From Bdellovibrionales bacterium (lineage in GTDB: Bacteria > Bdellovibrionota > Bdellovibrionia > Bdellovibrionales > UBA1609): 53,907 nucleotides of DNA. Positions 18,001-27,000 of this stretch are shown piece after piece. The position numbers were made by a program. The stretch spans positions 1 through 53,907 of the forward strand of contig JBFWVI010000020.1 of assembly GCA_050246815.1 (NCBI GenBank), written 5' to 3'. How positions within the stretch are numbered: position 1 is the stretch's first letter; each line of letters starts with the position of its first letter.

Positions 18001-21000
18001 TCGCGTTTAATTTAACCGATGCACCGCCAACGCTTGCGCCGGCATAATTGCCGATCACTTTTGCTTCCAAATTGCGAAGTGTGGCCGGCAACAGGTTGGG
18101 CTTTTCGCTCGCTTCGATCACCCCGAAGTTCGCAGCAAATTTCGCTAGTGGCGGAAATGCGGCTGTTTTGACTGCCAAAGGAAACATTTTCGAATTGGAT
18201 AGGGCCCGGCCCGAGTCATCGATCATGTTGGCGGGCATTTCAATTTTAAAGCTGCCACCTTCTTTAAAAGGGCCCGAAAAGGTCACGCGGGTCACAGTTT
18301 TTTCGTTGCTGCGGGCACGATCCGGATGGATCACTTTGCCGTCCGCACCAACCAAGCGAACCTGTTTGGCTAGATCGGCCGAAACCGGCTCTGAGAATTC
18401 GATCTCGAGGGGCATCAAAGGCGAGCAGTCCGCTTTGGCGTTTTCGCGAGTGCAAGTGAATTGGGCACGCAACTCTTCACGAACCACAAAGGCATAAGAG
18501 GCCTTGGTCTGGCGCGCTTTGCCACCATTTGAGGCCACAATTCCAGGCCCCCAAACCAAAGAGACCTTGCTTTTAATTGCAAAGGCTTCGCGGGCCTGTA
18601 CAAGGACCACTGGGGTTTTCAAATCACGCGAGCCGAATTCAGCCTTTAAGATCTCTTGGCGCTGGATACCTTCGATCAATCGCACGGGGACGGCCGAGGA
18701 TTTGCCCGTCACCTCAAAATAAACATTTTTCAAGACCGTGTTCATATCAACGTTAGTGTCGAGCAGTAAAACAAAGATTTGGTCTTCGCTGATCACCGGC
18801 GCGTCTGCGCTCCAGCTGGACGGCATCACGCGAAGGACGTTGGGTCCGTCTATTTGAAAAGCAAAGGTGGTCGAACCCGAGATGCTGGCGCCGGCCAGGC
18901 TCTTAACGTCTTTTTTCAATTGAATTTGGCAGCTGGTTCCCCCCGGCAAGAAGTTGCCTTCTAGTTCGGTGTCGAAATCAAAGATCCAGGTTTTATCGTC
19001 GTTCCAACGAGCCCGGCCTTGAACTTGTGGCACGCAGTTCAGATTGAAAAGGTCCGCGTTCTGCGACGGCGCAGAAAGATTAATCATTTTATCACTGAAG
19101 CTGACGCGAATTTGGTTCGCGGTGTTGCTTAAGTTTTGCGGGGACACGCGGGTGATCGTCGCGGCGATCACAGTTGTATGCGCAAATAAAGTAACCAACA
19201 TCAAACTGATTAAGGCCTTCATTTCGGTGCTCCTAAAAATGGGGGAACGTTCTTGTTTGTGGCGTAGTTCTGCTGACAATCGCGGGGACTCGCAACGGCT
19301 ATTTGCATTGTGTAAAGAAAATGATTCTTTCGTGTTCGGCGATGAAATTTCTTTATGAACAGCTCCTTTGGGCGCATAGCGTTAGTCGGCAAATTAAGTA
19401 TAGCCGCTGATTTCCTGGCTTCGCTTGCGTCTTAAATTTCCTCTTTTGCAGCAATGTAAAATAGACTTTACATCAAGAAACAACTCTTTTACGGTGCTCT
19501 TCATGCCACGAATTGAAGGAAAGTTGAACCTTAGCAATCGAATCCCGAGCTTGCGCGCAGAGCAGAACCTGACTCAGCAACAGCTGGCTGAAGCAGTGGA
19601 CGTAACCCGCGCCACGGTCATTGCGCTTGAAAAAGGAAGCTACAATCCCTCACTCGAATTGGCATTCCGCTTGGCCAAATTTTTCAGGACCAGCGTTGAT
19701 TATTTATTTTATGAAAAAGGGGCCCGAGATGACTAAAGCTATACGCTATTTGCAAAACTATTTGATCCTCGCCTTGCCTTTTGTGGTGGCTATCATGGTG
19801 TGGGGAACGCTGCAGCCAGAAGAGATCGTGAATCAAAATCCGTCCTGGTTGGTCCGTGGTCTATGGGAGGTCATGGCCTGGAATCTGATGGCCTGGTTTG
19901 CGTTGTTGATTGTCTTTTTAATCTGCTTGGTCGCATTACCGCAGGCGCGCGAAAAAACCCTAAAGCGCCTCGCTCGCCTTAAAGAGCGTGACGAGCGCGA
20001 ACAATACATCACCGGTCGCGCGGCCCGTGCCACCTACCTGTCGACTTTAAGCGTTTTGATTTTGTTTTTGTTCATTTCAATCTTCAAATTCGATATCACA
20101 AAAAAACCAATCGCTGAAATGCCCGAGGGTAAACGCGGCGTCGTGAGTATCGGTCTTAACTTCAAGCTGACCGATGAAGTGCAAAAAGTGCAAAGCGAAT
20201 CGGGCGAAGTTTTATTTGAATCAAAGGATTTCCCGCTTTCAAAATCCGCGTTGATCCTGTTGCTCATTCTTTGGCAAATGGCATCGTTTCATTTTTTTGC
20301 CAAAAAAGAAGCCTTGCTTGATTAACGATGCGGGCGACGACGGCGCTGAGACTTCGTGAGCCAATCTGAAATATAGCCCGCATATTTCTTGCGGGTTGCT
20401 CTGGGCATGTTCGAGTAGTTGCCGATCCATCTTCGGCAGATCGGTGAGCCACAACGACAGCGCATTTTCCACCAGTCGTTTTTTTCGGTCATCTCATAGT
20501 CCCAGGTGATTTGCTCACCTGGAGCAATGGCCCGCATAGCGACGATTTTAAAAAGATCTTTGATGCCGCAGTTGGGATCGCAAGAGTGGTTCACCAAGCG
20601 CGCGATGCCCTTCGAATCCCGCCAGCAGGCCTTTTGAAATTGAATGGCGTGATTTAAAAGGTCTTCGGTCCAAGGCTCAAAATCATCATCCAAAATGACC
20701 CCATCAAAAACCGCGATGACTTCGTTTTTTCGAATCGGCTTGATAGCGTAAACGCCACGGCCAAATTTTTTAGTGCGCCGAACGGCGACCTTACGGCTGT
20801 CCATTTCACCCTAATGTAATTTCTCTACGTTCTTTATTCATGCTTCGAACCAAATAAATGCGGCGCATTGACCGCGACGCATTAATCATTTAAGGATTTC
20901 CATCTATTTCAGTAGTTCTGGAGGCTTGAGATGATCGGGCGGGTGCTTTGTTTGAGTCTTTTTTTGGCTACTGCCGCCCAGGCTGAATCCGACCGAAACC

Positions 21001-24000: not shown

Positions 24001-27000
24001 ACGCACTGATCGACTACCCCTTTCCGGGCGAAAATAATATCTTTCTGGGCGAAGATCTGCGCGTGAACCGTGAGTTCAAAGCCGAGCTTGCAATCGAACC
24101 CGAAAGTGTCAGCACTGCCCGCCGATTTAAGCAGGGAGAACATAAAAAAACCGCATCTGAAAATATGCGCGACACCTTAGACGTCTTTATTGCCTCTTTG
24201 AGCAAGCGGCTGCACCCCACCGCAGTGGGTGGTGCGTGCGACGCAGCACTCGCTGCTGGGGCTAGCGAATCGAAGAAATAGCACGATTGGGGCGAGCCGG
24301 GGCCCAAGCGCGACGCTCGTAAAGACGAGGCCTTGGGGCTTGGTTTTTGGCCAGCTTAAACATAGCTTCTTTGCCCATAGGCCGACGCGCATTCAAAGGC
24401 TTTTTGCCTTGAACATAGGGCTTCACCGGGGCGGTCACCGCGAAATCGTCAGGGTCTGCCTGGCGCGGCTTGGGCTTAAAAAATAGAGCAAAAGATAAAC
24501 AGGCCAAAATGAATATAAGCGGTATATAAGGGCGCATACAGTGAGTAAATTCAAACCCTGTGCCCCTTTAGAGGCTTTATATCGCTTGGGCAGACGGCTG
24601 CCACTGTCACCTTTTACAATCTGCTTAAAAGTTGGACGTGGCTATTTGACAGCTGGTACAAGCCTTACTTTCCGGGGAGGAAAAATGACGACGCGCCTCT
24701 TGTTTATGACTCTTATTTTGACCTTGGCCGCCAAGGCCCACGCCACAATTTTAGATGAAACCCGAACCGATGACGTGAATCAAAGTTCGGTGCACATCAA
24801 ATGCCAGCTTCAAGATATGGATCTGGCGGAATTTGCGGCTCATACAAAAATCGTCATTCACACCGAATTCGGCGACGATGCGCCGAATGCAGAGGTCTAT
24901 GGGACGGACAAAAAATTAGACGCAAATATCACAATGACGGATTTTTCAGACCATCCGCATCTGAATATGCGAATTTTTGTTCTGCTGAACATGGAAACCG
25001 ATCAGATCACCAACTTGATCGTGGTCTACAGCAAACAAAACGGCCGCATTCAGGCCACTGGTGTTTTGACCACAAATGGCCAGCCCAACCCTGTGGTCAA
25101 TGCCCGTGACATGAAGTGCGAATACGTAGGCCCCATGGCCATTAATGGTTAAGCAAAAAAAATGAGCACTGGGCCCGGCCCTCAGCATTTGATCCGCGAA
25201 AACTGGCTAACCCGTGCGCCCAAGCCCTGGGCGGGCTTTGTTATGATTTTGCTGACACTTCTTTTGATGCTAGCAAATTTCTTTTACTGGAATGGCTACG
25301 CTCAGGCGGACCAGTGGATGCCATCTAGCTTTCATACTGTGATGGACCGACATGAATTTTGGCGCCTTTGGACCGCGCTATTTGCACACGGAGATTTGGG
25401 GCATTTGCTGAGCAATTCAATTTTATTCTTACCGCTAACTTACTTGCTATCCGGTTACTACGGGCTTTTATTTTTTCCCGTTGCTGGATTGTTGGTGGGC
25501 GGCTTGGTCAACGCTATGGTGATTCAGTTTTTGCCCCCACAAGCCTCTTTGTTGGGCATGTCTGGCGTGGTTTATTGGATGGGTGCAGCCTGGCTGACAC
25601 TTTATTTTTTGGTGGATCGACGCGAAGCTTGGCGACGACGTTTTGCCGTTGTGGCTTTTTTAGCCGTCATGCTTTTTGCGCCTGAAACCTACAAACCAGA
25701 GATCAGTTACTTAAGTCATCTTCTTGGTTTTGTTCTTGGCATCTTCAGCGCTTTTGCTTTGTGGTGGCTGCGCCGCCGTGAATTTGAAAGGGCCGAGGTT
25801 TTAGAAGAATTTTTTGAGCGCGATGAGCCTGGCGCTATCCCTTGAGTTGAGCGCGAAGCAATTGATCACAACTCTGAGCTGTTTTCTCATCAGCAAATTG
25901 TTGAATTAAAATCCAGCTCTGCCAAAGAGCTTCCGGGATGGGCGAGGCCGCGATTATTTTTTTTACTTCTTCAGCTCGGGCCACTTCACTTTCGCCGTGC
26001 CGGCTTAAAATGTTGACCACTTCGATCGGGCGGTAAACGGCATAAATGGTCGCCAATAAACCTAAAACTTTAAGGCCAACAACCATATCCGCGGGCTGCA
26101 GTTGAATCCCCGAAGCCAGAGCCCAAGCAGAGAGCATGCCCACATTCATTGCGGTGATGCCCTTCATCAATTCAATACCCACCTTCACCTCAACCGAACG
26201 CCCGGGGCGGACCTGATGCCGACGATCACGGTAAATTTTTAACTGCTTGGCGAATTCCGCGACGGCAAGGGCGGAGATTTGCTGACGCATTTCAGATGTG
26301 ATTGTGGTTTGACCACTTTTCATCCATTGCAATGCTTCATAAGAAAGCCCCAGTCCGTTTTGCAGCTCAGGCAGACGTGCGATAGTTGCAAGCGCATTTG
26401 TTAAGCGCTCGCCCTCACTCAGCTCCGCCCAACTGGCGGTGACCTCCATCAACCGCTTTTCAACCGCTTCGATCAGGGCCTGATCAGGGGTCACGGGGGC
26501 GAAGGTTTTGCCCTCCTCTGCCAGCAGCGGGGCTGCAAACAAGCTTAGCAACAGGAGAATTTTGACCATGACGCTGTGTAATATGGTGCGACATTGATGT
26601 CCAGGATTTTGTGGGGCGAGTGGTTCCGCATATGACGGCCGCCCAACTAAAGGTGCAGGCCTATACCGACTAACAGGTTCATCTGCGTTGCCGTAGATTC
26701 AGACTGACCCGTCAGAAAATCATAGCGGAATTCGACATTGGCAAAAACTTTATCGCGAAACAACCAATCTAAACCCACGTTTACACCGGGCCCCACATAG
26801 GTCGTGGTCAGCGTCGTTAAGAACTGTCTTTGTCGAAGTGCAACCCCGGCGTAGGGTCGAAGGACGCTGCTAAAATGCATCGACATCGGCCCACTGCTCA
26901 AAGACTGATAGCCCGAGGTCGACATTGGATAATAGCGAAGCCCCAGATCGAATCCTGTTGCCGTGTCTCCGCCAAATCCTTGAGAAGACACTAAAGTCAT

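Follow-up and report, generated by a model that had tools for sequence, protein, structure and literature searches.

A probably exported tandem-AAA M41 protease of Bdellovibrionota, predicted to be gated by ATP and possibly aimed at other cells

A single gene within the 53,907-nucleotide contig JBFWVI010000020.1 of a Bdellovibrionales bacterium (assembly GCA_050246815.1; this whole stretch is the window referred to below) appears to encode an exported protein that joins two AAA modules to a zinc peptidase, which raises the question of where such an enzyme could find ATP. We know of no bacterial ATP-dependent protease that acts beyond the cytoplasm of the cell producing it. With a probability of roughly 0.55, we favor the reading that this protein, g01445, is a secreted ATP-gated zinc protease aimed at another cell, one that would be silent in the periplasm of its producer and become active on meeting prey ATP.

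The preliminary description of g01445 as a signal peptide, two AAA modules and an FtsH-type M41 peptidase with no membrane anchor is confirmed by the open reading frame, the motifs, hydropathy and Pfam, which finds AAA in two stretches together with Peptidase_M41 (35.7 bits; cut-off 29.9). Both Walker A motifs and the HEFGH motif are intact, as had been stated (Table 1), and a transmembrane helix is absent, with no 19-residue window past residue 60 exceeding a hydropathy of 1.61 (44 members tested). Only five open codons lie 5′ of the ATG in frame before an upstream stop, which together with the ribosome-binding sequence fixes the start and indicates that the N-terminus is complete. Recent transfer or contamination was rejected as the source of the gene because its composition (GC 0.520, GC3 0.580) matches that of the genome's genes (0.511 ± 0.028 and 0.567 ± 0.051), and a chance fusion was rejected because 52 near-full-length relatives exist. 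A scan for promoters and terminators gave signal at chance level.

Table 1. Positions of g01445, its parts and other proteins of the same genome with predicted export signals (contig coordinates; the last three rows lie on other contigs)
Feature	Residues	Position	Strand	Basis or remark
Whole gene, g01445	1116 aa	20931..24281	+	signal, AAA1, beta linker, AAA2, beta linker, M41, helical extension, Cys tag
Shine-Dalgarno-like GGAGG		20920..20924	+	sequence; 6 nt upstream of ATG
Predicted Sec/SPI-type signal peptide	1-18	20931..20984	+	sequence, heuristic scoring; predicted cleavage between AQA and ES
AAA1, ClpA/B-D2 type	~55-358	21093..22004	+	motifs; VIA Z 20.5, rmsd 6.3, 303 aligned, ClpB NBD2 4lj4
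AAA1 Walker A GLPGVGKT	98-105	21222-21245	+	sequence
Beta-rich linker / C-terminal subdomain following AAA1	~360-445	22008..22265	+	poorly conserved, mean identity 22%
AAA2, duplicate of AAA1	~461-770	22311..23240	+	VIA Z 21.9, rmsd 3.6, 307 aligned, Skd3/CLPB 7xbk
AAA2 Walker A GFTGVGKS	505-512	22443-22466	+	sequence
M41 zinc peptidase	~835-1034	23433..24032	+	Pfam; VIA Z 13.2, rmsd 3.6, 166 aligned, FtsH protease domain 2di4
HEFGH zinc motif	844-848	23460-23474	+	sequence
Third zinc ligand, Asp	926	23706-23708	+	aligned to FtsH GAEND
Cys tag CDAAL, sole Cys of mature chain	C1103	24237..24251	+	tail Cys conservation; C[DE]xxL enrichment
Unrelated protein with signal and tag CDQLL	244 aa	25835..26569	-	same tagged class; not a conserved neighbor of g01445
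g02023, ClpB-like ATPase		C34:19272-21659		signal-like start
g02291, ClpB-like ATPase		C43:19969-22698		signal-like start
g00601, J-domain protein		C6:96166-97047		signal-like start

Judged by their sequences, the two modules are duplicated versions of the ClpA/B-D2 type and are not FtsH-type. Family profiles score ClpA/B D2 above FtsH, and hhalign comparisons give 100% (E 5.6e-50) between AAA1 and AAA2 and 98.5% between AAA2 and ClpB D2. In a quick tree calculated without bootstrap, the two modules fall into one group together with five single-module relatives (96% SH-aLRT). Each displays the residues of the Clp-D2, ClpX and HslU type in a D2-type fold: beyond Walker A, AAA1 carries Walker B LFVDE, sensor-1 N217, Arg finger R277 and a sensor-2 GAR motif (R339), and AAA2 carries LLLEE, N631, R680 and R750 at the equivalent positions, along with a conserved hairpin past Walker B (EIDPxxG..RP) and a conserved insert, ADPRLTTIED. 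The aromatic GYVG-type pore-1 loop is deleted from both modules, and an aromatic-hydrophobic-Gly motif occurs at this site in only one of 52 family sequences for each module. The earlier proposal of ATP-dependent unfolding and proteolysis thus divides in two: the residues for ATP hydrolysis and zinc proteolysis are intact, but the missing pore-1 loops leave the unfoldase role unsupported. An ATP-gated or weakly translocating protease acting on loosely folded or specific substrates is more likely than a strong ClpAP-like unfoldase.

The peptidase clears the PF01434 cut-off and matches the FtsH protease fold; a passage of PMC12994072 defines M41 by HExxH and a downstream Asp zinc ligand. As in FtsH, YME1 and AFG3L2 (MEROPS M41), it lies directly behind an AAA+ module, and AAA2 plus M41 aligns with FtsH 4ww0 over 385 residues (Z 13.5, rmsd 7.9). 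FtsH, however, is anchored in the membrane by one or two helices that keep its AAA on the ATP side, and it has a single classic-clade AAA with an aromatic FVG pore loop, whereas g01445 has an export signal, no anchor, and two Clp-D2-type modules without that loop; its TIGR01241 (FtsH) score of 30.6 bits falls below the cut-off of 600. The best structural matches are among ClpA/ClpB/ClpC D2, ClpX, HslU and Skd3/CLPB, which share the fold, the sensor-2 GAR and the D2-type Arg-finger segment. The class I Clp/Hsp100 proteins ClpA, ClpB and ClpC nevertheless pair D1 and D2 modules of unlike types, in contrast to the D2-D2 duplicates of g01445, which lacks an N-domain, an M-domain and the GYVG loop in D2, contains its peptidase within the same chain, and scores 28.2 bits against TIGR02639 (cut-off 993). 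Lon, too, is a soluble AAA+ protease made of one chain, and its module is related (7sxo, Z 16.5), but it is cytoplasmic and has a Ser-Lys peptidase, one AAA module and an aromatic pore loop. The eukaryotic torsins and Plasmodium HSP101 of PTEX are secreted, ClpB-like AAA+ proteins that act beyond the cytosol, in compartments that contain ATP (TorsinA 5j1s, Z 15.6, rmsd 3.2, 243 aligned; HSP101 6e10, Z 19.3, rmsd 19.1, 501 aligned). Neither includes a peptidase, and HSP101 retains tyrosine pore loops.

Nearest in sequence, tree and feature searches are proteins that join one Clp-D2 module to M41 (Atlas clusters; commonest taxa Uroviricota and Bacteroidota). They have the same AAA type and also lack the GYVG loop, but contain one module and mostly no signal or tag, and the searches brought up no characterized example. 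The signal-less relatives have a single module and seem to belong to phages and Bacteroidota; a phage search with the single-module protein P0121 returned only four weak matches, all to the M41 region, and a cluster look-up of 10 distant relatives yielded no names. A separate single-module branch (L103-L105) carries both signal and Cys tag, and L102 carries neither; in the quick tree without bootstrap this branch lies apart from the tandem family. The claim that the architecture is undescribed is supported by searches of the open-access literature, which gave no description of the family or the tag. The main text of PMC11656739 does not contain the terms 'AAA', 'M41', 'ATPase' or 'signal peptide', and the tandem FtsH-type AAA proteins of MoxR-vWA systems, as outlined in PMC7159879, represent a different architecture.

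Residue conservation was counted in 52 near-full-length representatives with roughly 22-49% identity to g01445. HExxH is kept in 51 and Asp926 in all 52. Walker A is retained by 45 (module 1) and 46 (module 2), with 42 preserving both; the acidic Walker B pair is kept by 47 in either module, and the Arg finger and the sensor-2 Arg each by 51 and 49. Such retention among divergent members points to selection on both ATP hydrolysis and proteolysis. These counts bear on the alternative that g01445 is exported as a general secreted peptidase acting on released prey or environmental protein, its ATPases decaying or using ATP merely to switch or assemble the enzyme. Consistent with this, the pore-1 loops are absent, the M41 region has the highest mean conservation (38.5%, versus ~35% for each AAA module), and several members with degenerate ATPase sites retain HExxH. 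At least one canonical Walker A is missing in 10 of the 52, some through truncation, and the outliers include one protein with both ATPase sites degenerate (P0072), one that has lost HExxH (P0059) and a split copy in genome G010. In both modules, however, roughly 90% or more of the 52 divergent members retain the Walker B catalytic residue, the Arg fingers and sensor-2, which serve hydrolysis and not binding alone; the general-peptidase alternative is rather unlikely.

Export of g01445 by Sec, with cleavage after Ala18, is very probable from the character of its N-terminus (MIGR-VLCLSLFLATAAQA, followed by ES), which presents a positive n-region, a short h-region and a small-x-Ala site and lacks a twin-Arg. 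The signal-like starts reported throughout the family hold up in 44 of 46 N-complete near-full-length members, as scored with a home-made heuristic that also rates the first helix of FtsH as signal-like; among more distant relatives, 4 of 20 start with a stretch that scores as high. No lipobox pattern (lipoprotein, SPII) was flagged in the 52 family sequences. Were the leader instead an uncleaved anchor or an artefact, g01445 could be a cytoplasmic FtsH-like protease, in a compartment that has ATP and in keeping with its close signal-less single-module relatives and the heuristic nature of the signal scoring. An uncleaved anchor, a concern of the preliminary description, is unlikely to leave the domains in the cytoplasm, given the hydrophobic cores of 8-12 residues, the net positive N-region (38 of 44 members; negative in none) and the lack of a second or later helix by hydropathy (0 of 44). 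In 38 of 44 members a small-x-Ala comes after the core, even an uncleaved N-in anchor would place the domains outside, and the start is fixed; a non-exported enzyme is improbable.

The protein ends in a C-terminal Cys tag. A Cys occurs in the tail of 45 of 52 relatives, against a background of 34 of 1468 interior windows, and C[DE]xxL, a pattern chosen post hoc from a loose-pattern list, is enriched at C-termini genome-wide; the loose pattern CxxX[LFIVM] is not (73/948 versus 97/1355, p 0.63). Approximately 60 exported proteins of this genome bear the tag, and the cargo is rich in hydrolases, a point that also fits a general secreted peptidase. The tag alone does not imply cytoplasmic delivery, since it also marks numerous ordinary peptidases of the periplasmic type (S41, trypsin/PDZ, M16). 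Four secretin genes are present, none linked to the tag. Onward secretion of g01445 along with the other tagged proteins is, on balance, reasonably likely.

The recurrence across Bdellovibrionota first noted in 9 of 151 genomes (5 families) now extends to 14 of 401 in 7 families, or 13 of 400 when the source genome is set aside. The family was not found in any of 53 genomes of one family (f2) or in the single same-genus genome, and this rarity indicates that it is not core predation machinery. Of the 15 named loci, three place it in Elusimicrobia, and the tag is missing from members at these three loci and at one unclassified locus. We know of no predatory lifestyle in Elusimicrobia, and the untagged members there weaken a purely predatory reading. 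Across the 15 named loci and the window, no conserved neighbor or adjacent immunity gene was found beyond chance pairs.

Other machines that are normally cytoplasmic bear export signals in this genome, among them two J-domain proteins and two Clp-like ATPases; two PrkA-like ATPases, a SpoVR-DUF444 fusion and pieces of a giant AAA protein extend the set. Contigs C35 and C73 share no overlapping sequence that would connect them. The heuristic recovers the signal-like starts attributed to g02023, g02291 and g00601. Two ClpB-like ATPases with such starts are indeed present, but each has just one fully canonical ATPase module: in g02023, which lacks the Cys tag, the D1 Walker B is degenerate, and in g02291 the D2 Walker A departs from the canonical form and the D2 pore loop is missing. 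As reported, g02023 is without a close match (200 other genomes gave none at E<=1e-60); g02291 has one, of partial length, in 1 of 200. The 73% identity to DnaJ given for the g00601 J-domain was not reproduced: it is 58% (38/66) to the genome's DnaJ and ~60% (40/67, hand count) to the top PDB DnaJ chain, 1bqz. Separate canonical ftsH, clpA, clpB and dnaJ genes exist, as described, as do clpX and lon. This 99%-complete genome yielded no DnaK or ClpP that would be exported: its only DnaK, a YegD-like Hsp70 and its only ClpP all lack a signal. Since g00601 keeps HPD and g02291 an MGF loop near the ClpA docking-loop position, their partners would be foreign.

The exported ATPases could, conversely, belong to the producer's own periplasm or envelope, where g01445 would stay and perform ATP-powered quality control or translocation, comparable to HSP101 in PTEX, with ATP present locally or scavenged from prey. 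The whole set speaks for this, with the PrkA-like, giant-AAA and SpoVR-DUF444 proteins apparently exported with their own partners, and Elusimicrobia members would need no prey. Moreover, PTEX offers a precedent of a secreted ClpB-type motor (PMC7355975), and the references of one review include a B. bacteriovorus ATP transport system. A search of the genome for a TLC ATP/ADP translocase gave no match, nor did any control genome. Housekeeping machines, however, are expected to be conserved and linked, whereas g01445 is patchy and without conserved neighbors, its companions are near-singletons, and neither a DnaK nor a ClpP with a signal came to light. We consider a resident periplasmic machine unlikely.

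Under the favored model of a secreted protease aimed at another cell, the Clp-type modules would probably assemble the ring, as family knowledge suggests, and so replace the membrane anchor of FtsH. Activity would arise only where ATP is present, in the prey cytoplasm or in a permeabilised prey interior supplied by prey ATP, and substrates would be engaged without a canonical aromatic pore-1 loop, probably via the conserved hairpin past Walker B. In the periplasm of the producer, a compartment described as ATP-free in PMC4174580, the need for ATP would serve as a safety lock and would account for the lack of an immunity gene traveling with g01445. Published work describes signal-peptide nucleases of Bdellovibrio secreted into the bdelloplast (PMC7925074) and proposes prey killing by secreted agents (PMC11003981). 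We infer delivery to the prey cytoplasm on a lifestyle assumed for the source organism from kinship, and the absence of exported DnaK or ClpP strengthens this view.

More tentatively, Bdellovibrionota might use an undescribed route to export a whole class of Cys-tagged effectors to the prey cytoplasm, combining self-contained ATP-driven proteases with parts that plug into prey DnaK or ClpP; the producer would be unharmed because its periplasm lacks both ATP and these partners, and cofactor dependence would replace immunity proteins. A D2-D2-M41 chain that lacks aromatic pore-1 loops would itself represent a new design of AAA+ protease. The export signal and the conserved ATPase sites together imply either that large enzymes reach an ATP-containing prey compartment or that ATP is present in the producer's own envelope, and the tag and its ATP-gated cargo may provide direct reporters for the way in which enzymes of a predator gain access to the contents of the prey cytoplasm.

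The start codon of the 1116-residue protease gene is fixed by a GGAGG motif 6 nt upstream and by an in-frame stop five codons earlier. A Sec-type leader of 18 residues, ending AQA|ES, opens the encoded protein; two P-loops and an HEFGH motif at residues 844-848 follow, and the only cysteine of the mature chain, residue 1103, lies within the sequence CDAAL. Pfam assigns two AAA domains and Peptidase_M41 above cut-off, and among solved structures the peptidase is closest in sequence to FtsH and the second module to ClpA. With ORF, start and Pfam matches all re-found, the joining of two AAA modules, an M41 peptidase and a signal-like start in one frame, as reported in the preliminary description, is real. 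Base composition is in line with that of the genome (3.4 Mb, rated 99.1% complete), of which the window is contig C20. Among the neighbouring genes, the minus-strand run with FliG_C matches presumably resembles flagellar-motor/OmpA-like genes, with a barrel protein, and genes further upstream (11406-19279, minus strand) are taken to resemble those for alpha-2-macroglobulin and PBP1C.

The protease gene and its neighbours in the window
Feature	Coordinates	Strand	Length
Tandem-AAA/M41 protease ORF	20931-24281	+	1116 aa
SET-domain protein gene	20322-20804	-	
Rhomboid protease gene	25162-25845	+	
Gene run with weak barrel and FliG_C matches	26647-31134	-	

Profiles of the two AAA modules from the tandem family, comprising the two-module M41 relatives of this protein, match each other with an E value of 5.6e-50, and both score higher against the D2 module of ClpA/B than against D1, Lon or FtsH. 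An AlphaFold model (mean pLDDT 88.7 with 57 sequences, 77.1 with 11) resembles Skd3/CLPB (Z 21.9), ClpB NBD2 (20.5), ClpX (20.2) and the FtsH protease domain (13.2). By these profile and structural matches the chain is D2-D2-M41, a Clp/FtsH hybrid. When tested with family models, it fails membership of both the Clp and the FtsH families.

Motif counts cover the 52 representatives that remained when P0001-P0059 plus P0070, P0072 and P0078 were filtered for a length of 1020 aa or more, with 55 further candidates, too short or beyond the chosen range, left outside the alignment. Walker A is intact in 45/52 first modules and 46/52 second modules (both in 42), Walker B in 47/52 of each; arginine fingers and sensor-2 are each retained in 51/52 and 49/52, respectively. 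HExxH is present in 51 and Asp926 in all 52. In another phylum genome (loci L013/L017), the family gene is broken into two frames just past HExxH, reflecting either an assembly error or a pseudogene.

The GYVG pore-1 loop is deleted in both modules of the D2-D2-M41 protein, and a similar motif occurs in one of the 52 representatives in each module. In ClpX, Lon and YME1 the substrate is held by aromatic residues of this loop (PMC12994072). Because this substrate-gripping loop is deleted in both modules, the ATP-dependent "unfolding" proposed earlier is unproven. The likeliest replacement for the loop would be a conserved hairpin that follows Walker B. An exported peptidase for which ATP is merely a switch strikes us as quite improbable.

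A hydrophobic leader was found in 44 of 46 N-complete family members by a heuristic that also flags the first helix of FtsH; of the two misses, one is borderline and one looks truncated. With P0006 and P0050 set aside, the remaining 44 members were scored in detail: the N-region has a net positive charge in 38 and a net negative one in none, the hydrophobic core spans 8-12 residues, a small-x-Ala site follows it in 38, and no membrane helix was found beyond the leader. Mean leader hydropathy is much lower in 20 more distant relatives, 4 of which exceed the threshold. Under the positive-inside rule, such a leader would place the following domains outside even if uncleaved. That the protein is a cytoplasmic enzyme is very unlikely.

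The tail cysteine recurs in 45/52 family members, as against 34 such cases among 1468 interior windows. Genome-wide, the pattern C[DE]xxL, chosen post hoc, occurs in signal-bearing proteins (a loosely defined class) at 57 of 62,916 terminal versus 9 of 216,287 interior positions (~22-fold), and in signal-less proteins at 26 of 109,152 versus 57 of 360,027. About 60 signal-bearing proteins carry it, most without a Pfam match. Among 67 candidates the motif lies just past the signal in 36 and at the C-terminus in 31. Pfam scans of 59 of these left 37 without a match; the 22 matched proteins comprise eight peptidase-like proteins, four alpha/beta hydrolases, two FGE-sulfatase-like proteins, two weak matches, and one each of a J-domain protein, Clp ATPase, PrkA-like ATPase, SpoVR-DUF444 fusion, GT2 and haem demethylase-like protein.

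Several other machine-like proteins bear signal-like starts. The ClpB-like ATPase g02291 is tagged, with D1 intact, a non-canonical D2 Walker A and an MGF loop; its gene immediately precedes canonical dnaJ and dnaK, with clpA nearby (C43:19969-24785). A second, g02023, is untagged, with D1 degenerate and D2 intact with GYVG, and its gene closes a run of four in the same orientation, all encoding proteins with signal-like starts (C34:12354-21659). The J-domain protein g00601 is tagged, keeps HPD and is 58-60% identical to the DnaJs tested; another signal-bearing J-domain protein (L096, C16:58640-60322; 561 aa) has HPE for HPD and a terminal cysteine. No signal was found on the genome's DnaK, YegD-like Hsp70 or single ClpP. 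A signal-bearing PrkA-like ATPase (tag CDAML) precedes a giant signal-bearing AAA protein leaving its contig (L093, C35:1-7606); a giant AAA piece ending CDRFL precedes a signal-bearing, tagged SpoVR-DUF444 fusion (L094, C73:4-8226); and a second PrkA-like paralogue lies at C143:44-2572 (L095). These are possibly one exported cassette broken by assembly; no sequence overlap was found between C35 and C73.

Of 400 other genomes of the phylum, 13, from seven families, have the tandem family; it was found in none of the 53 genomes of one family (f2) and not in the one same-genus genome examined. Eleven of 15 named loci are titled Bdellovibrionales, Bdellovibrionaceae or Bacteriovoracia/Bacteriovoracaceae, all with the Cys tail; the other four (three Elusimicrobia, one unclassified) lack that tail and each carry a long extension at the N-terminus. 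These loci and the window share no conserved neighbour gene; at one locus, L091, the protease gene comes after canonical clpB. In quick trees all first modules cluster (98%), as do all second modules (97%), beside single-module D2-M41 proteins, a grouping that fits a single old duplication. Single-module proteins of this kind make up the nearest Atlas clusters, recorded most commonly from phages and Bacteroidota, and this family occurs in 3 of 201 genomes searched. One copy (L102) lacks a signal; three (L103-L105) have signal and Cys tag, and in an unrooted quick tree these cluster with signal-less proteins (99%), apart from the tandem family. The simplest reading of this unrooted tree is that the tandem family and L103-L105 were recruited to export independently. 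HExxH is lost in L104 and L105. Divergent single-module relatives (P0092, P0095, P0099, P0100, P0115) have low-complexity N-termini and no signal, several lacking HExxH, and a separate signal-less family of ~1100-1200 aa (P0127, P0133, P0137, P0143 and similar) combines a Clp-D2-like module, an FtsH-type AAA module and M41.

According to PMC4174580 the periplasm contains no ATP, yet the hydrolysis residues of this apparently exported protein are under selection. We favour, with a probability of roughly 0.55, a putative secreted protease gated by prey ATP, which would be active in the cytoplasm of the prey or in a prey interior that leaks. Excerpts of earlier work describe Bdellovibrio signal-peptide nucleases sent into the bdelloplast (PMC7925074), degradative enzymes Sec-secreted into the prey cytoplasm while the contents of the prey stay compartmentalised (PMC2797640), and prey that can be killed with no invasion, which suggests secreted agents (PMC11003981); a tomography study saw vesicles only and no clear predator-to-cytoplasm connection (bioRxiv 2022.06.13.496000). 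The rarity of the tandem family, its degenerate members, the untagged Elusimicrobia copies and the ordinary periplasm-type peptidases among tagged proteins count against the prey-ATP reading. An ATP-fed system within the producer's own envelope is an unlikely alternative, less so than ATP as a mere switch. In a prey-ATP-gated protease, Clp-type rings would stand in for the FtsH-type membrane anchor, in much the way that a hexamer tag takes the anchor's place in soluble YME1 constructs (PMC12994072).

No description of the tandem family was found in the literature covered, supplements and subscription journals lying outside that coverage. D2-D2-M41 is a new AAA+ protease variant, and this protease is a strong example of a broader class of exported proteins that is itself undescribed.
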